IMG/VR virus record: IMGVR_UViG_2534681759_000010
Location: 1-36,000 of that record
DNA length: 36,000 nucleotides
Source: a virus
Lineage: Duplodnaviria; Heunggongvirae; Uroviricota; Caudoviricetes
Reading direction: 5' to 3' (one strand)
Positions 1-35,612 of this stretch are shown here, in pieces. Made by a program: the position numbers and the translations under genes. Positions within the stretch are counted from its first letter, which is position 1. Each line of letters begins with the position of its first letter. The notes beneath the pieces were generated by a model. It saw only the letters and a list, made by a program, of their open reading frames with translations, had not been told where the DNA came from and did not search any database.

Positions 1-351
1 ATGCGAGAGACAGTCGAAATTATGCGTTATCCCGTCACTCTTACACCCGCGCCGGAAGGCGGTTATATGGTTTCTTTTGTGGATATCCCTGAAGCGTTGA
101 CGCAGGGCGAAACTGTCGCTGAAGCGATGGAAGCGGCAAAAGATGCTTTACTGACCGCATTTGATTTTTATTTTGAAGATAACGAGCTAATCCCGTTACC
201 TTCGCCATTAAATAGTCATGATCACTTTATTGAAGTACCTTTGAGCGTCGCCTCTAAGGTATTGCTGTTAAATGCTTTTTTACAGTCAGAAATCACTCAG
301 CAAGAGTTAGCCAGGCGAATTGGCAAACCTAAATGTTGTAAACCCCAATAA
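1..351 (+). CDS. hicB: HicB-family antitoxin, C-terminally truncated: HicA-neutralising N-terminal fold retained, DNA-binding tail replaced by CCKPQ-stop
   Basis: Translation MRYPVTLTPAPEGGYMVSFVDIPEALTQGETVAEAMEAAKDALLTAFDFYFEDNELIP...QQELARRIGKPK matches my recollection of enterobacterial HicB over about 105 residues, then diverges at about nt 336. Not verified by search. Confidence 0.6.
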   Translation: MRETVEIMRYPVTLTPAPEGGYMVSFVDIPEALTQGETVAEAMEAAKDALLTAFDFYFEDNELIPLPSPLNSHDHFIEVPLSVASKVLLLNAFLQSEITQQELARRIGKPKCCKPQ

Positions 352-364
352 CTAAAATTTTTGC

Positions 365-396
365 AATAAAAAAGCCCCATCACAAGGACAGGGCTA
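365..396 (-). terminator. Weak rho-independent terminator for the minus-strand gene 415..720
   Basis: AGCCC...GGGCT stem with a large loop; the A-run on the + strand gives a U-run after the hairpin on the minus-strand transcript. Confidence 0.35.
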
Positions 397-414
397 TAGA
401 ATCAATCACTTACA

Positions 415-720: not shown

Positions 721-1019
721 GATTTGCCCTCGCGTGAAAAATATTTTCGATTATTTATAAAAAAGACTTGACAAAATCAAAAGGTACTGTTCCACGGGTG
801 AAATAAAGCGAGTTTTCGGCACCCCGGTTTTTGATGTGCGTGTGAGATTTCAAAACAGGTGCAGTGCAGCCCACCAGCGCGGTCGCTACGCGACTATTAA
901 CACCAGCCAATCCCTTTCCCTGCCTCGATCTTTCCCTTCGTTATAAAGCGTTTTAGGCGCTCTCCTGAATGCGCAGATCAGATAAATAATTTTACGCAAA
1001 TTTAATGGAGGATAACCGG

Positions 1020-1580
1020 ATGAAAGAAGAATTAACCCTTACAGAAATTTCCCGCTTATACGGCTATACAATCAACGCCGCTAAGAAATGGCAAGAACGA
1101 GGAATGCCATTTAATACCAATACACGACGCGTGCCAGCCAAAGAAGGAACAGAATGGGTCTTGAAGAACATCATTAATCCGCTCAAAGAAACTACTGTCA
1201 AAGAACAAATCGATGTAGAGAAATTACGCCGTGAGCGTGCTTTGGCAGATGCAGCCGAACGAGAGAACCAGGAAGCAATGAATCTCCTGATTCCCGTCGG
1301 TTATGTGGAGCAGGAGCTAGCGGAATACTGCGGGAAAGTGAAGCAGACTATTTTGCAGATCGCCACAATCGACGCTTTAGAAATTCTCGAATCTGCCACT
1401 GATCAGAAAACATTGAAGAATAAGCTAAGGGAGATCATCGAGCGTCGTTTAAATGAAGTAGGGGACTTGTTCGAAAATGCAGATTTGGGAGAAGACGAGG
1501 AAGAAGAATTACCATTAATGGATGAACCGGAAGAACAAGAACAAGAACCAGAAGAAGACGATGAATTTGATGTGTCTTAA
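1020..1580 (+). CDS. Terminase small subunit, lambda Nu1-like winged-HTH, with acidic C-terminal tail
   Basis: GGAGG 8 nt upstream of the internal ATG (ORF-track start 1005 + 15). LTLTEISRLYGYTINAAKKWQERGMP resembles Nu1 KKQLADIFGASIRTIQNWQEQGMPV; EKLRRERALADAAE resembles Nu1 ENEKLRREVEEL. Confidence 0.6.
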   Translation: MKEELTLTEISRLYGYTINAAKKWQERGMPFNTNTRRVPAKEGTEWVLKNIINPLKETTVKEQIDVEKLRRERALADAAERENQEAMNLLIPVGYVEQELAEYCGKVKQTILQIATIDALEILESATDQKTLKNKLREIIERRLNEVGDLFENADLGEDEEEELPLMDEPEEQEQEPEEDDEFDVS

Positions 1581-7524: not shown

Positions 7525-9429
7525 ATGAAACTAATTTCTAATAAGGCCAAATTAAAAAAGATTCTCAGAAATGCAGCCAAATATATTACGCCACCGCCTA
7601 AACTCCTTCCTTCTGAATGGTGCGAAGCGAATATGGTGCTGGTAGATGGTCCTCAAGCGGGGGATAAAGTTAAATTGCTGTCATTCCAGAAAGGCATGAT
7701 TGATGCTCCTTTCCTTGAGAATAAGAAAAAGTATGTACTGATGACCAGTGCGCAGATCGGAAAAACTACCATCCTAAACGGTATCCTGTTTAACCAGATG
7801 GCTAACGATCCATGCAATATGATTATCGGACAATCAACCGCTAAAGAAATGTCTCAATATCTCGCGGGTAAGATCCGACCGTCTATCGAAGCATGTGATG
7901 CATTGAAAGACGTGGTTACAGACAAGAATGATCGTAATGCGGTTAACAACAATAACCAACTCCAGTTAAAAACGAATCACTTCCTGTACATGGTATCGCT
8001 TACCAGTCCATCAACCCTACGCGGTAAGACCGCAAAGGTTGGATTGCTTGACGAAATCGATGCTGCCACAGCCTCAGAAGAAGGTGATCCGGTGGCACTG
8101 GCTGCTAACCGTTTAACTACCTTTGGCGATGAAGGTCGATTAGTCGTATCCAGTACCCCGACCAGTAAGCTGGGAAGCATTAACCAGCAATGGTTATCAA
8201 ACGATATGCGTATGTTTTTTGTTCCGTGTCCTCATTGCGGGGAACACCAGGTGATCGAGTGGGAAAACGTTCAATTTGAATGGCGTAACATTGATGGTAA
8301 GAACTTACCCGATCCTGATACCGCTCGTTATATTTGCCCCCACTGTAAGAACGCATGGACCGAAGGGGAACGAATCAGGGCAGTAGCACAAGGCGAGTGG
8401 AGAGCAACCCGTGAAAGTGAGGTAGCAGGATTCTGGATTAGCCGTCTGTATTCACCTTTCAGCACGATTCGCGCTTGTGTGGTTGATTTTAGTCATGCGT
8501 GGCAATCCTTTGATTTACAATCATTTTATAACACCGTGTTAGGCAAGGTATACGACGATCAGGACACGGCAGTAGAAGCAAATGAACTGGAACAACTCAA
8601 AACAGATGTTTCTATCGAGAATATCCCTGATGACGTGATTTTCTTGTGTGCGGGTACTGACCAGCAATTAGATCGCGCAGAAACTACGATCATGGGCGTG
8701 GCAAAGGATAAAATTTATATTCTGGATCACCGCAGCTTTTACGATCATAACTGTGAACGATATGAATCCCCTGTATGGGATAGATTAATCAACTTCCATA
8801 AAACCAAATTTACTACTGTATCGGGTGATCGTGTTCCTATGCTCGCCAGCTTCCTTGATACATCGAACGGTCGATTCACTCAAGCTGGATACCGTATTTG
8901 CGGCAAGTGGAAGAACTTACACGCTATCAAAGGTAGTTCTGCTGGTAACGCTCCGATCATTCCGGTTAAACCTACCCGCACAGGTGGTCATGAATTGCTT
9001 ATGTTGGGTGTTAACGTGGGTAAAACTGCATTTCGTGAAATGTTGGCTAGGAACCTGAAAGATAATCCTCATATTGGCTTAGAAATATCAGACACCGTTC
9101 CTGATGATTATCTCGATCAGCTTTTAAGTGAATCTGTCAAGCGTACTACTACTGGCGTGAGATGGGTAAAGAACCCAGGCGTTAGGAACGAGGCGCTCGA
9201 CTGCGCCGTGTATGCTACAGCGGCTTCTCGCTACGTCCTTTCAAAAATGTCATGGGATAAACTCATTGCAATGAAAGACAGCTTAAACCGTGTTGTCGAA
9301 GAACCCGTAGAAGCTCCTAAATCGCAATCTGACGAGCAAATCGAAGAAAATAAGCCAATCACACGACCACAACGTAAAAACATCGCCAGACGTCCAAATA
9401 GAGGCCGTAGCTGGGTAACATCGTTCTAA
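7525..9429 (+). CDS. Terminase large subunit, lambda GpA family
   Basis: PCPHCGEHQ vs lambda ACPHCGEEQ; YSPFST vs YSPFTT; [12 protein letters not shown] vs AGIDSQLDRYEM; [15 protein letters not shown] vs RRNEALDCFVYALAA. Confidence 0.85.
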
Positions 9430-15383: not shown

Positions 15384-18300
15384 ATGCAATCAATCCAATT
15401 TAAGCGAACTAATGTAGCTGGCAAAAAGCCAACGCCGGAACAATTACAGGTCGGTGAGGTAGCAATCAACCTTAAAGACCATGTTATTTTTACCAAAGAC
15501 CGAGATCATGAAGTAGTTCAAATCTCTGTTTCTCCTGAAACTCACGCGGCACTAGAATCTAAAGTTGATGCTAACAAACAAGAACTGGATAGTACAATTG
15601 CAGTAAATGACCGCAATATTCACGCTAAAGTAGATGAAATTAAACAAACTACTGATGCAACCATCGCAGCAAATCACGCAGAAATTAACAATAAAGTTGA
15701 TGTAATTAAACGCGAAACCGACGCGACAATCGAGGCCAATAAAAATAAAGCTGCTTCCGATCTTGCTGGTGTTAAAGCTGAATTGTCGGATACCATCAAC
15801 GCTAATAAAAATGCGGCTGCTGTAGCAACTCAGGAACTGGACACCCGCATCAATAAAAAAGTTGATGATATTAAATCCCGTACCGATGCAACCATCGCAA
15901 GCAATTACAAAGCAATCAATGACAAAGTTGATTTGATTAAGGCAGAAACTGACCGCACTATCGCAGCAAATCACGCCTATGCGGAAAATCAGTTAACTGA
16001 CACCTACAATAACCTTACTGGTGTGATTGCGGCTAATAAGCAAGAGGCAGCGGATAACGTCGCAGCATTAACCCGTGATGTTGAAGCCAAAAATTCAGCA
16101 ATTCATAGCAAAGTTGACAATAACAAGTCTTACACTGATTCTGAACTGGCACGCTTAGAAAGCCGTATTGATGCAGCCGACGGATCGAGTGATGGCAAGT
16201 ACATCAAAAAACACGTAAACACTTATACTGATGGTTATTTGTTGTCTAAGACCGCAAACTATTTTGATGATCCGACCGCACGAAATCTTGATTATTTTGG
16301 TGCATTCCGCATGAATGACCTGGCGGGTCATATTGCAATGATCTTGCATGTTCCGCATCCATCTGGTGTTAATCATGCTCGTGGCTTTGAGTTCACTTAT
16401 GGGTCTAATCCGGTTCATACGGTAAGAACATACGGCTACGATGAATTGGGTAACTTGTCATATTCTCACCGCATGTATCATGAAGGCGATAAACCTACTC
16501 CGGCTGAAATTGGCGCATATTCGAAAGCAGAAATTGACCGACTGTTCCAGAAGACGCTTAATTTTGGGATCGAGGGTGGTTGGTTTAAACTAGGCACTTT
16601 GACAATGCCACAGCAACACGGTCGTAGTGCTAAGATCCGCTTAGTTGGTGGTAACGGTTATAACGTCGGGATGAATGGACAAGCCAATATTATCGAATTG
16701 GTGATTCGATGCGGCAACAATAGCCCGAAAGGTGTTGTATTCAATGCGTATTATACTATTTGGCATTATGAACAACATTTTTGCGCTATTCCAACCGATG
16801 GCGACAATTACGATCTTTACGCTTACTACGGTGCACATACAGGATTTGTTTTAGCAGAATATCAAGTTTCTTCCGGTGGTGTTTCTTTAAACCTGTTGGA
16901 TACTCCTGAATATCTGGGTGGTGAAAAACCTGTTGCAGATGAAATTTTTGATGCTCTTAACATTTCATCGTTCAATAACTTTAGCAACCGTGGAACGTTA
17001 AATTTTGCTGGAAACCATCAAGGCCAATACGACATTGAGCATATGAACGAACAACCGACAAATGCTAAAAAGATGTTGCGTCGCTTCCGTAGTTCTGCTC
17101 CTGCCACTATCTGGCACGAAAGTGTTGATGACCAAAATTATCGTCTTGCTACTGGATATACCGATGTAACCCAACAATTATTGCTTTCGGCTGTAACCGG
17201 TTTGCATATTCGTAGATTGACCATCGATGGTGGCTTGGGTTCCGGTTCTAATGCTGGTATTGATATTCGTCGAGGACCAAACGAAGCAAGCCATTTTAAT
17301 TTTATGGATTATCGCACTGGTCAAGATGTTCGTAATGGCTGGTTTGGTTTTGGTGATTTGACGACCAAAGATTTTATTTGGTGGAACGATAACGGTCAAA
17401 ACTCAATAAACTTGATCGAAAACGGTGAATTGCATATTACTGGCGGTAAAGGCCAGAAAATTGTAATGAATAGCGAAGTTGCATTATCTGAAAATGCTCG
17501 TTTGGCTGTCAGAGGCGGTAACTATGGTTTGATATTACGCAATGATGGTTCTAACTTCCATATTCTTACTACCGATTTAAAAGATTCTTTTGGTAATTGG
17601 AATAATCGCAGACCATTCAGCTATAATTTTGAGGACGGTGGACTATATTTAGGTGGCACTGAAACTGCTCGTTGTTTGCATCTGGGAATTGATGGTAGCA
17701 CTCGTCTCGAAGACAACCTTTTCTTTAAATCTGGTTCTCGTCAATCTATGGACTATATGGAACTCGTCCATTGGGGGGCAAGCAATACAGGTCGAAATAA
17801 CGTTTTAAGTCTTCGTGACTCAAAAGGATTTTTAGCCGAATTTGAACGCGTGGGGGGGACTAACGGCGTTAAAACCAGATTCTTTGGTGAAACCTTCACT
17901 GACGGTACATTATACCTAAATCAGATGAATAATAGCTCTGAACGATTCTCTATCAACAATTGGGGAAATTCAGAAGTTGGTCGCGCGGCAGTAATGGAAA
18001 TCGGCGATTCAAAAGGTTATCACTTCTATACTGAACGTAGGACAGATAACAGTTTGATGTTTGATGTTGCTGGCGCTTTTACTGTGCATGGATCTAGCGG
18101 GATCACTATCAAAAACTCTGATGGTGCTCGTCACATCTGGTTTAGAGATAACAGCGAATCGGAAAAGGCTGTTATTTGGGCGACCGATGAAGGTATTTTA
18201 CATATTCGCAATAACCACGGTGGACCATTTAGTCATCACTTTAAGGGTGCAATGATTCAACTGGAAGGGCGTGTTCCTTATGCCGCAGATCAAGGACTTA

Positions 18301-18914
18301 TCCGTGGTGAAGTTGATGGTGGTGCATATGTTGCATGGAGAGACCGCCCTGCTGGTTTGTTGGTTGACTGCCAGAAAAGTGTTGACAGTGCTCATGCTGT
18401 TTGGAAAGCGGTTGATTGGGGGCGTCAATATATCGCTGCTATGGACGTTCACTGTCCGGGTGATGGTAATAATACCGCAGCCGCTGTTCTTCATGTTCAG
18501 GCTGCCGATTATCAATTCCATGCAAGCGGAGAATTTCATGCCACTGGCAACGGAAACTTTAACGATGTGTATATTCGTTCTGACCGTCGCCTTAAAGACA
18601 ATATAGAAGATTATACCGGAAATGCGTTAAGTTTGATTGGTAAGCTGAAAGTGAAAACTTACGATAAAGTTAAATCTCTTAAGGACCGTGAAATTATAGG
18701 CCATGAGATTGGCATTATCGCACAGGATTTACAAGAAATATTACCAGAAGCTGTGAAATCTTCAAAAGTTGGCAATCTTGATAATCCAGACGATGTTCTG
18801 ACAATTTCTAACTCGGCAGTGAACGCGCTGTTAATTAAAGCGATTCAAGAAATGAGCGAAGAAAATAAAATCCTTCGTGAACGTCTTGCTGCAATTGAGG
18901 CTAAATTAGGGTAA
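15384..18914 (+). CDS. Tail fibre with N-terminal repeat region and C-terminal S74-type intramolecular chaperone domain
   Basis: About 19-aa repeats (KVDxIKxxTDATIAAN) in the first 250 residues; C-terminal NDVYIRSDRRLKDNIE...IIAQDLQEILPEAV resembles the self-cleaving chaperone domains of T5 pb1 and K1F endosialidase. Confidence 0.8.
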   Translation: MQSIQFKRTNVAGKKPTPEQLQVGEVAINLKDHVIFTKDRDHEVVQISVSPETHAALESKVDANKQELDSTIAVNDRNIHAKVDEIKQTTDATIAANHAEINNKVDVIKRETDATIEANKNKAASDLAGVKAELSDTINANKNAAAVATQELDTRINKKVDDIKSRTDATIASNYKAINDKVDLIKAETDRTIAANHAYAENQLTDTYNNLTGVIAANKQEAADNVAALTRDVEAKNSAIHSKVDNNKSYTDSELARLESRIDAADGSSDGKYIKKHVNTYTDGYLLSKTANYFDDPTARNLDYFGAFRMNDLAGHIAMILHVPHPSGVNHARGFEFTYGSNPVHTVRTYGYDELGNLSYSHRMYHEGDKPTPAEIGAYSKAEIDRLFQKTLNFGIEGGWFKLGTLTMPQQHGRSAKIRLVGGNGYNVGMNGQANIIELVIRCGNNSPKGVVFNAYYTIWHYEQHFCAIPTDGDNYDLYAYYGAHTGFVLAEYQVSSGGVSLNLLDTPEYLGGEKPVADEIFDALNISSFNNFSNRGTLNFAGNHQGQYDIEHMNEQPTNAKKMLRRFRSSAPATIWHESVDDQNYRLATGYTDVTQQLLLSAVTGLHIRRLTIDGGLGSGSNAGIDIRRGPNEASHFNFMDYRTGQDVRNGWFGFGDLTTKDFIWWNDNGQNSINLIENGELHITGGKGQKIVMNSEVALSENARLAVRGGNYGLILRNDGSNFHILTTDLKDSFGNWNNRRPFSYNFEDGGLYLGGTETARCLHLGIDGSTRLEDNLFFKSGSRQSMDYMELVHWGASNTGRNNVLSLRDSKGFLAEFERVGGTNGVKTRFFGETFTDGTLYLNQMNNSSERFSINNWGNSEVGRAAVMEIGDSKGYHFYTERRTDNSLMFDVAGAFTVHGSSGITIKNSDGARHIWFRDNSESEKAVIWATDEGILHIRNNHGGPFSHHFKGAMIQLEGRVPYAADQGLIRGEVDGGAYVAWRDRPAGLLVDCQKSVDSAHAVWKAVDWGRQYIAAMDVHCPGDGNNTAAAVLHVQAADYQFHASGEFHATGNGNFNDVYIRSDRRLKDNIEDYTGNALSLIGKLKVKTYDKVKSLKDREIIGHEIGIIAQDLQEILPEAVKSSKVGNLDNPDDVLTISNSAVNALLIKAIQEMSEENKILRERLAAIEAKLG

Positions 18915-33310: not shown

Positions 33311-34990
33311 TTAAATTCCAAATTCCTGTAATGGACCTGGTATTTCCTCTTCTGGTTTCCAGTTCTTATCTGTCAGCATGTCTAAACATGGATGCAAAAC
33401 AAGCCCGTTACTTTCCAGAATCTGTCTATCATTGATAGTTTTCAAATCAACGAAGATCCGGCCTTTCCTCGGTCCTCTTGAATTTTCTATTACAACTCTC
33501 TGGGTCTTGCCATCGATGTATTCCAGTACAAACAAGTTTTTGTACTTGTCAATCCTGCTACACCCGATCCGTTTTAGAGCTTGCTTAATCTTAAACCGGA
33601 CCTTAATGCGATCCTCGTTGTAAACATCTTCTATATCAAATTCTGCGAGCTTCTCCCAGCCTTGAGAGTCAACAGAATACATTTCCTCTTCTGCCATCTT
33701 AATTTGATTGTAGAGTGTTTCACGCTCGCTATTGAGGGTAGTAATCTGATCGGCTAGCTCCTTCGTTGCTCCTGTCATAGCAGAAAGGGTAATCAGGTTA
33801 TCAATCTTGCGTGATATTTCATCAATCTGTACTTTCAAAGCCGGAACCGGATTAGCCTTATCCTCAGCAATCCAGATTTTATCAGCCAGCAATTGCAATA
33901 CAGCTTTCTCTAATTGATCACCTCGAAAACTCCAGTTTGTATGCACACATGCAATACGACTAGAGCGCATTGCATCGCATGAATAACGATATTGGTTAGG
34001 ACGTTTGTTAGTTCCTTTCACCTTAACCATAGCGGAACCGCAATGTTCACATTTCAATAGACCAACACCACTAAGCAAGGGAATAGGTTTAACTTCTTCC
34101 TTGTCTCCATAGTTACATGCTCTAACACCAATGCTTTTCTTAAGGTGATAAAACTCAGCGTCATCTAGCACACGAGGATAATAATCCTTTAACTCATACT
34201 TAACGCCATCTACAGAGATTTCCTTGATACCAATCAAAGCGCGGGTATGGAACAACCTTTCAATCATTGCCCGTGACCAGTTTGAATGCCTCTTGTGACT
34301 TGCGGCTGGTGGTGGTGTGTATGTCGCGTTAAGGTGATCCAGTATCTCGGCGGTTGACCGTCCATTCCTGCGTAATTCCACAACTTCCTGAACAATAGGG
34401 AAGAAGACCGGATGAGGAAGCACATAACCAGATGTGGTATCAGTCCACCACATATTCTTTCCAATTTCCTCGATTGCAACAGCCGGATTTTGTGGATTTT
34501 CTTGATGAGCTTTAATCTTAATCAATGCGCTTGAGTTAGTACGATTGCGCTTAGTCTGACTTTCCTCGTTAGCTCTCGCAAACAACATGACACTCAACAG
34601 CAAATCAATAGGATTGGCATTAACCGATTCCTTGCTATAGACCTTACCATCCATGCCAGTTACGATAGTTATTCCCCTACGGATAATCGAGAGAAATAGC
34701 TCTTGTGCTTCAATGATGGATTGGCGAGAGATACGGTCTAAGTTTTCCACAACCAGCCAGCTACCAACCGGAACGGATCGACCAATCTCATCCAGAAAGC
34801 GAGATAGTGCACCTGTTCTACTGTTAGCCCCTTTGAATGCAGATACACCAAAATCCTGATAGGAAGTAACCAGTTCAAGGTCATATTTTGCGGCTATCTC
34901 TGCGGCTGTTCTCTTTTGGCGTTCATAAGAACTACCATCTGCTTGCTTCATGGAAGAGAAGCGAATATACGAATACAGTTTAGTTTTCAT
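33311..34990 (-). CDS. Large serine recombinase (serine integrase or invertase-like)
   Basis: N-terminal resolvase catalytic domain (MKTKLYSYIRFSSMKQADGSSYERQ); long C-terminal extension with Cys cluster (CEHCGS...C...C) and coiled coil, typical of large serine recombinases. Start at the internal ATG (track start is a TTG). Confidence 0.8.
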   Translation of the reverse strand: MKTKLYSYIRFSSMKQADGSSYERQKRTAAEIAAKYDLELVTSYQDFGVSAFKGANSRTGALSRFLDEIGRSVPVGSWLVVENLDRISRQSIIEAQELFLSIIRRGITIVTGMDGKVYSKESVNANPIDLLLSVMLFARANEESQTKRNRTNSSALIKIKAHQENPQNPAVAIEEIGKNMWWTDTTSGYVLPHPVFFPIVQEVVELRRNGRSTAEILDHLNATYTPPPAASHKRHSNWSRAMIERLFHTRALIGIKEISVDGVKYELKDYYPRVLDDAEFYHLKKSIGVRACNYGDKEEVKPIPLLSGVGLLKCEHCGSAMVKVKGTNKRPNQYRYSCDAMRSSRIACVHTNWSFRGDQLEKAVLQLLADKIWIAEDKANPVPALKVQIDEISRKIDNLITLSAMTGATKELADQITTLNSERETLYNQIKMAEEEMYSVDSQGWEKLAEFDIEDVYNEDRIKVRFKIKQALKRIGCSRIDKYKNLFVLEYIDGKTQRVVIENSRGPRKGRIFVDLKTINDRQILESNGLVLHPCLDMLTDKNWKPEEEIPGPLQEFGI

Positions 34991-34999
34991 ACCATTTCC

Positions 35000-35040
35000 A
35001 AACAAAAACGCCCCTACCGCGTATTATAACGATAGGGGCA
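35000..35040 (-). terminator. Hairpin terminator immediately upstream of the recombinase start
   Basis: GCCCCTA...TAGGGGC stem with a 16-nt loop containing TATTATAAC, followed on the minus strand by GTTTTTGTTT. Confidence 0.4.
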
Positions 35041-35055
35041 TTGGTTAGTAAGTCA

Positions 35056-35301
35056 TTAATATTTCTTTCCAGTTAGTTTTGCATCACGTTTATTAATATC
35101 CTCGATATGACTCCATACACACGCAGTAATAAAGTCGTCATCGTCACCAACTCCGGCAACCTGTGCTAATTCAGTACACAGTTGATTTAAAGAAGGTGCA
35201 ACGGCAGCACGCTTGACACTATCACCCTGTACATATTGATCCGCATTAGCAGCACCAACCAAACCCAGAGCAAGAACAACACCAGCGATAATCTTTTTCA
35301 T
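35056..35301 (-). CDS. Small secreted (periplasmic) protein, 81 aa, with Sec signal peptide and no lipobox
   Basis: MKKIIAGVVLALGLVGAANA followed by DQ; mature part about 60 aa with two Cys. Confidence 0.55.
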   Translation of the reverse strand: MKKIIAGVVLALGLVGAANADQYVQGDSVKRAAVAPSLNQLCTELAQVAGVGDDDDFITACVWSHIEDINKRDAKLTGKKY

Positions 35302-35346
35302 AGTAGAATTTCCTCTTGTTGTTTGAATTACGATATATTTATATCG

Positions 35347-35472
35347 TTAAAAGTTAATACTAATAATCAGACCAAACACAACCGCACCAATCAAATCAAT
35401 CCAGTTAATACACAATCCGCTATATTCTTTCTTGAATGTCTTAGATGAAATGCCATCATGAAATTGTTTCAT
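35347..35472 (-). CDS. Small peptide, 41 aa, with C-terminal TM helix (MKQFHDGISSKTFKKEYSGLCINWIDLIGAVVFGLIISINF)
   Basis: Below the track cut-off; read from the minus strand. A second hydrophobic 26-aa ORF lies just upstream on the same strand. Confidence 0.3.
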   Translation of the reverse strand: MKQFHDGISSKTFKKEYSGLCINWIDLIGAVVFGLIISINF

Positions 35473-35585
35473 TGCTCACCCCATACTAACGACAATATAA
35501 GAAAGGCTGATCATAGTTGTGAGACTACCTCCCACGAATGAGATAAAAGCTAACATGTTTGATTCTCCAGTTTAAAAAGCGGTGG

Positions 35586-35612
35586 GAATTACACCCACCA
35601 AATTAGAAATTA
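35586..35612 (-). terminator. Terminator for the minus-strand gene 35614..36000
   Basis: GGTGGG-AATTACA-CCCACC hairpin followed on the minus strand by GCTTTTT. Confidence 0.5.

Follow-up and report, generated by a model that had tools for sequence, protein, structure and literature searches.

Does a viral contig that opens inside a bacterial antitoxin gene carry that gene as its own, or does it preserve the point at which a phage entered a chromosome? The stretch of DNA analysed here (the window, 36,000 nucleotides in all) begins with a shortened hicB and goes on with phage genes, and it therefore raises three connected questions: where host and phage DNA meet, what joined them, and what the insertion leaves of the HicAB toxin-antitoxin system. 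Our answer, to which we give a probability of about 0.9, is that nt 1-352 constitute the attL of a tailed-phage prophage of ~35.7-36 kb, integrated in E. coli hicB by its own serine integrase, and that the probable consequence is a HicB protein consisting of residues 1-104 followed by CCKPQ. The coordinates of the relevant features are collected in Table 1.

Table 1. Features of the window on which the argument draws
Feature	Position (nt)	Strand	Remarks
hicB' (truncated hicB ORF)	1-351	+	116 codons if counted from the longest-ORF ATG, 109 with the RefSeq/PDB start (nt 22)
Host-derived part of hicB	22-326	+	last ~25 nt form the B half-site of attL
Probable crossover dinucleotide AA	325-326		placed by attL/attR comparisons
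Phage P' half-site of attP, ACCTAAATGTTGTAAACCCCAATAAC	327-352		attL, attR and attB compared in six genomes
-35-like hexamer TTTACA	337-342	-	predicted promoter; TATAAT -10 in the P arm, ~30 nt past the right end of the window (L006 about 34240-34246)
Terminator-like hairpin	373-395	-	ends the leftmost phage gene; would block phage transcription antisense into hicB'
Leftmost phage gene, 101 aa	415-720	-	no Pfam or PHROG match; variable cargo slot beside attL
TerS-like gene	1005-1580		PHROG 57
Large terminase	7525-9429		
Large serine integrase, 559 aa	33311-34990	-	ATG at 34990; longest ORF starts at TTG 35005
Terminator-like hairpin	35580-35600	-	follows the 128-aa gene immediately
Last phage gene, 128 aa	35614-36000	-	phrog_14908; start codon is the last triplet of the window; attR of relatives ~44 nt on

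The identity of the first ORF is beyond dispute. Using K-12 HicB (the PDB 6HPB sequence, 138 aa) as a tblastn query, we found residues 1-104 encoded by nt 22-333 with 100% identity, and the rest of the window held no other HicB-like sequence. The last 34 residues of the antitoxin are swapped for five foreign codons (CCKPQ), and a TAA at nt 349-351 closes the frame. HicB_lk_antitox (PF15919, E=5.6e-8, above the gathering score) was the sole Pfam domain of this ORF, whereas full-length HicB shows in addition an HTH_3 domain at residues 88-134. With HTH_3 undetected and hence no recognisable C-terminal DNA-binding domain, the window ORF is a truncated member of the HicB family. Among relatives, RefSeq labels the corresponding stretch 'hicB, incomplete, missing C-terminus', and in 14 of 14 attL variants the truncated ORF is equally long, its tail reading CCKPQ, VVNPK or VVNPQ.

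The original prediction, made from the letters alone, had assigned this ORF to the neutralising N-terminal domain of HicB, and the PF15919 match together with the perfect identity over residues 1-104 bears it out. It had further held that a ribbon-helix-helix domain was replaced by five residues and a stop. The five residues and the stop are present, but the replacement is not complete, as the first two helices of the DNA-binding domain are kept, and the domain in question is an Xre-type helix-turn-helix (Pfam HTH_3; PMC11594946), not a ribbon-helix-helix. E. coli HicB carries a helix-turn-helix and dimerises via the beta-strand that follows it, and ribbon-helix-helix domains occur in the HicB proteins of Yersinia, Streptococcus and Burkholderia (PMC11594946). 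Judging by the Pfam coordinates, ITQQELARRIG would correspond to helix 2 and KPKQEITRLFN would start the recognition helix; the cut would thus spare two helices and remove the recognition helix, the next helix and the dimerising strand. These missing elements are what sets the window ORF apart from HicB of the K-12 hicAB locus (6HPB, 6HPC, 6U0I), with which it agrees in residues 1-104, and whose neighbourhood (yncJ-hicA-hicB-ydcR) relatives of the window share.

Since the window shows nothing upstream of hicB, the fragment might be phage-borne, picked up by imprecise excision or maintained as an antitoxin mimic, instead of marking a junction with the host; Moraxella phages match nt 16-187 with 68% identity, and phage-borne HicAB has been reviewed (PMC11594946). 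Complete E. coli genomes speak firmly against this. Nine of them match nt 1-800 throughout with 96.5-99.4% identity, others match the hicB part or the phage part alone, and in eight of the nine the whole junction has a single matching place in the record. In the same genomes the host-derived part of hicB is 96.5-99.4% identical at the DNA level, and it finds matches in >5,300 genomes of E. coli. Of 5,426 complete E. coli genomes, 37 (0.7%) cover a 180-nt probe with the junction at its centre, a recurrence that excludes a chance match, and the integrase module was present in 58 genomes. One record, NZ_CP063332.1 (BS74R-D), is matched at additional places by the attL probe and by the integrase module; it may hold a pair of related prophages, perhaps with one copy in hicB and the other in ycdX, and if so both attachment systems coexist in one strain.

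Both flanks of the element are visible in five strains that could be followed end to end (PE15, L3Cip3, ETEC1717, PRO_A-1412 and O55:H7 DEC5A). Each has the order yncJ-hicA-5' part of hicB-prophage (33-41 kb)-3' part of hicB-ydcR, and RefSeq calls both hicB pieces partial. The left-hand order, yncJ-hicA-hicB'-phage, recurs in eight further lysogens, so that yncJ and hicA stand directly upstream in 13 of 13 relatives, hicA lying 45 nt before hicB'. Moreover, the same phage end is joined in sister prophages to another gene, ycdX, without any hicB sequence; the protein encoded by the fragment is fully identical to chromosomal HicB; and phage genomes with the same hicB fragment, which would favour a phage-borne gene, numbered zero in a DNA search of 50,697 phage records. 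On the strength of host synteny in 13 genomes we reject a phage-borne origin, whose likelihood is very small. The proposal of a prophage-host junction inside a toxin-antitoxin locus, with everything downstream phage-like, is upheld by this synteny, by the presence of both ends in five strains, and by the TerS-like, TerL, portal, capsid, tail and large serine recombinase genes that follow. As neither hicA nor attR falls within the window, the synteny of the present copy is deduced from relatives with 96-99% identity to it.

The 3' remnant of hicB (QEITRLFNLHH... and its DNA), which the original prediction expected elsewhere on the contig, was absent from the window, because attR lies beyond the window's end; in the five relatives the remnant does follow the other end of the prophage. 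There it begins 36-44 nt past the start codon of the last phage gene, a position equivalent to one outside the window. The sequence past the right end should accordingly read '...GGGGGCATTATATTAGG(G/C)AAACCTAAACAGGAGATTAC...', followed by the rest of hicB and by ydcR. The left edge of the window coincides with the longest-ORF ATG of hicB, 21 nt ahead of the RefSeq/PDB start, and the right edge with the start codon of the last phage gene (nt 36000). IMG/VR provirus calls of the same phage family are mostly trimmed at this same right-hand gene boundary, which confirms the earlier idea of a provirus call defined by gene boundaries. One such IMG/VR provirus has an integrase 100% identical to that of the window and a different tail sequence. 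The window is a provirus call with 326 nt of host DNA on its left and a right edge ~44 nt short of attR, and these two offsets fix the true boundaries of the prophage.

An empty site provides the most direct view of the recombination. The left half-site of the window joined to the right half-site of PE15 gives 400 nt that are 100% identical to the uninterrupted hicB-ydcR region of strain 504838; the region is uninterrupted in 5,281 of 5,415 matching genomes. Recombination was conservative, in that the left half of attL and the right half of attR rejoin without gained or lost bases. Comparison of attL with attR limits the exchange from both sides. In ETEC1717, attR reads 'tagggAAacc' and attL 'ttggcAAacc', which makes nt 325 the leftmost position possible for the exchange; in PRO_A-1412 and DEC5A, attL reads 'ggcAAccc' and attR 'ggcAAacc', which makes nt 326 the rightmost. 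From these limits we infer a crossover at the AA of nt 325-326, not at nt 336 as originally predicted. Identity with hicB DNA runs on to nt 333 and stops there, because the first 7 nt of the P' half-site happen to match hicB. The outer repeat of P', CCCCAATAAC, contains the TAA that terminates hicB'.

The reconstructed attP, GTGTTATTGTGGGGGCATTATATTAGGG-AA-ACCTAAATGTTGTAAACCCCAATAAC, spans 56 bp and forms an imperfect inverted repeat centred on AA. In the window type 14 of 26 positions are symmetric and in the DEC5A type 18, against ~6.5 expected by chance. An imperfect inverted repeat around a 2-bp crossover is typical of serine-integrase attachment sites. For an uncharacterised lineage of E. 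coli temperate phages that lacks an isolated representative, the attachment site can now be named as codons 102-103 of hicB.

On either side of the PE15 prophage stands a 14-bp direct repeat, TTGGCAAACCTAAA, such as might be left by transposition with target-site duplication or by a tyrosine integrase acting on a long identical core. However, the stretch common to attL and attR shrinks to 9 bp in ETEC1717 (AAACCTAAA) and to 5 bp in PRO_A-1412 and DEC5A (GGCAA), and in the prophages inserted in ycdX it is only GGAA, overlapping the same AA once the attPs are aligned. Because its length varies between lysogens, the flanking repeat reflects similarity of attP to attB and not duplication. In PE15 the P arm beside the crossover in attR (L001 44735-44753) reads ...tatatTTGGC, the same as the B arm of hicB, hence the 14-bp repeat; other phages have TAGGG, TAGGC or TAGTG at this place. 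The TTGGC of PE15 could be an attP polymorphism or a product of conversion between attL and attR. The absence of extra bases in the rejoined halves, the 56-bp symmetric attP and the fact that the only recombinase of the element is a serine recombinase all weigh against either mechanism. A 14-bp target duplication and a tyrosine-integrase core are both rejected on account of the differing repeat lengths, and we regard any such route as hardly credible.

What remains is integration by the phage's own large serine integrase. The protein matches Resolvase (E=7.6e-15), Recombinase (E=1.4e-7) and Zn_ribbon_recom (E=6.6e-10) in Pfam, the latter two above the cut-offs, and PHROG 95 'integrase' (E=1e-56), and it bears the motif YIRFSS near its N-terminus. 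IS transposases aside, a large serine integrase is the sole recombinase annotated in related prophages. Its closest match among 50,697 phage records was ~30% identical. No candidate for a recombination directionality factor emerged, the small ORFs near the integrase being without family matches in Pfam and PHROG.

Sister prophages with the same phage end, which split ycdX, a gene for a zinc-binding phosphatase, offer a comparison of target choice. We aligned the integrases of six hicB-targeting and four ycdX-targeting phages, which are 87-93% identical between the groups. The two types are separated by 27 fixed differences, all of them between residues 196 and 351 of the DNA-binding domains (recombinase and zinc ribbon); the catalytic domain occurs as two alleles that assort independently of the target. 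The switch from hicB to ycdX thus appears to map to this set of 27 substitutions. For genome engineering, the hicB- and ycdX-specific variants may serve as a compact natural map of the residues that set the target choice of a large serine integrase.

Whether the element is still a working prophage is less certain than its junction. The same junction could belong to a decaying, immobile prophage, in which case hicB would be permanently inactivated and not reversibly split. No free attP form was found in IMG/VR (0 matches) or, with a strict pattern, in metagenome contigs (0 matches), and a looser pattern gave 2 unrelated chance matches. A close phage isolate was likewise lacking among the 50,697 records, which contained only tail-fibre mosaics with T4-like phages and the ~30% identical integrases. 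No repressor or replication module was recognisable in the window by Pfam or PHROG, and IS elements, an mcr-1 insertion resembling Tn6330 or a truncated terminase occur in several relatives. In contrast, the terminase, portal, capsid, tail and integrase ORFs of the window are all full length. The phage family is present in strains from pig, human, cattle, goose and river water on several continents, and the occupation of the same two sites in unrelated strains, with differing cargo and attP alleles, implies repeated recent integrations. Decay is a minority reading, unlikely though by no means negligible.

The slot beside attL, filled in the window by the 101-aa gene, is taken in other lysogens by a GIY-YIG nuclease gene, by one for an LprI-family protein (lysozyme inhibitor) or by others; JSE-like T4-type phages contain a 73.5% nucleotide match to the 101-aa gene, especially to nt 523-624. 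A stretch of ~6 kb, occupied mostly by unassignable ORFs and by a Rha/anti-repressor gene, sets the large terminase apart from the TerS-like gene. The tail-fibre gene (nt 15384-18914, 1,176 aa) is 79-92% identical at the nucleotide level, over 1-3.4 kb, to genes for the distal subunit of T4-like long tail fibres, which suggests that a host-range module may have been exchanged between this temperate phage and lytic T-even phages. On the minus strand between the integrase and the 128-aa gene, nt 35056-35472 hold two ORFs, one of 81 aa whose N-terminus resembles a signal peptide and a hydrophobic one of 41 aa, and terminator-like hairpins at 35007-35042 and 35580-35600 bound this block. In PE15 (NZ_CP041628.1; L001 5817-10470), an ISApl1-mcr-1.1-pap2-ISApl1 unit resembling Tn6330 sits inside the hicB prophage, between the TerS-like gene and a gene for a 313-aa protein. 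At least one member of the family (PE15) has thus taken the colistin resistance gene mcr-1 into a prophage; a search of the literature for this context of mcr-1 in PE15 returned nothing relevant.

The attP itself may have a second role. Read on the minus strand, the window-type attP contains TTTACA-N18-TATAAT, a near-consensus sigma-70 promoter-like site with 11 of 12 matches, a score that 21 of 5,000 dinucleotide shuffles attained. The DEC5A type has TTGACT-N17-TATCAT and the ycdX type TTGACT-N18-TATCAT, so that a promoter-like site lies across the crossover in every reconstructed attP variant, comprising three diverged types. Neither attR nor attL retains the match, the -35 hexamer falling to 2-3 of 6 positions in attR. 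As a prediction, the intact site would drive the cargo gene next to attR, where a conserved leader precedes different genes in different phages. The integrase is probably outside this transcript, because terminator-like hairpins follow the 128-aa gene and precede the integrase gene. The hexamers could instead reflect binding of the integrase.

Taken together, these features permit a more ambitious proposal, in which attP would do double duty: an embedded sigma-70 promoter would be split by integration, the attR cargo would be transcribed only while the phage is unintegrated, HicB would be deprived of its DNA-binding domain and become an unregulated antitoxin, and 27 residues of the integrase would switch the target between hicB and ycdX. 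We advance this combination tentatively, as an idea whose chances are well below even. Junction promoters are familiar from the circular intermediates of IS elements, and integration-dependent immunity from phages. The predicted attP promoter resembles both in that it would be whole only in the unintegrated genome; it differs from them in being a prediction drawn from sequence.

For the host, the question is what a HicB cut after residue 104 can still do. The N-terminal domain of HicB neutralises HicA, and the helix-turn-helix binds the hicO operator in P2; transcription from P1 covers hicA and hicB, and P2, which HicB represses, yields HicB only (PMC11594946; PMC10865869). We propose that the large serine integrase inserts the prophage into chromosomal hicB by conservative site-specific recombination, and that the lysogen would then make HicB(1-104)+CCKPQ, which would keep the HicA-neutralising domain whole, together with the two leading helices of the helix-turn-helix. 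Given the published domain functions, and because the cut falls before the recognition helix and the dimerising strand, this protein should still sequester HicA and should fail to bind hicO and repress P2. The antitoxin-only promoter P2 would then be constitutively on, giving more antitoxin rather than less, and precise excision would restore hicB.

Neutralisation of HicA without autorepression is plausible on these grounds, agreeing both with the published domain functions and with hicA being intact by annotation in 12 of the 13 sampled lysogens, which is consistent with a harmless outcome of the insertion. The exception, PRO_A-1412-6M-A_ESBL, has a frameshifted hicA (L007 420-574), which could be a sequencing error or the result of selection against the toxin. 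HicB proteins without a DNA-binding domain are common (PMC11594946). The truncated product is predicted to act like these natural forms, neutralising HicA without autoregulation; it differs from them in arising through prophage insertion, in being reversible in principle and in keeping the stump of a helix-turn-helix. About 0.7% of sequenced E. coli may in this way be regarded as natural deletion mutants of the hicB DNA-binding domain, mostly with intact hicA, and hicB lysogens would provide a ready-made test of whether autoregulation matters.

It is tempting to go further and see in the insertion an adaptive switch, akin to active lysogeny, by which the phage rewires or disarms HicAB as a candidate anti-phage system and excision restores it. 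Systems with HicA domains have indeed been proposed to act in phage defence (PMC10865869), serine-integrase prophages that split and rebuild a gene are known, SPbeta in spsM among them (PMC5499854), and the truncation point retains exactly the neutralising domain. Sister phages, however, target the unrelated ycdX, which means that a toxin-antitoxin target is not a requirement of the family, and only 0.7% of genomes are lysogenic at the hicB site. An adaptive switch is accordingly improbable in our estimation.

Neither hicB nor ycdX was found described as a prophage attachment site in the literature searched. The event as such is of an ordinary and well-known kind: serine-integrase prophages that split a host gene do not overturn current understanding, and RefSeq annotation already marks the hicB genes of these lysogens as broken. 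The Listeria phages A118 and phi10403S in comK and the mycobacteriophage Bxb1 in groEL1 likewise use a serine-integrase attB inside a host gene, with a phenotype in the lysogen; their hosts, target genes and integrase lineages differ from those described here. In Bacillus subtilis, SPbeta is placed in spsM by the large serine integrase SprA, and its recombination is conservative, so that excision rebuilds the gene (PMC5499854). The hicB prophage resembles SPbeta in that a large serine integrase puts a whole prophage inside a protein-coding gene. Developmentally programmed excision with a directionality factor, SprB, is known of SPbeta and not of the system described here. The hicB prophage, for its part, is distinguished by a Gram-negative host and by the nature of the split gene, an antitoxin whose 5' fragment is probably functional.
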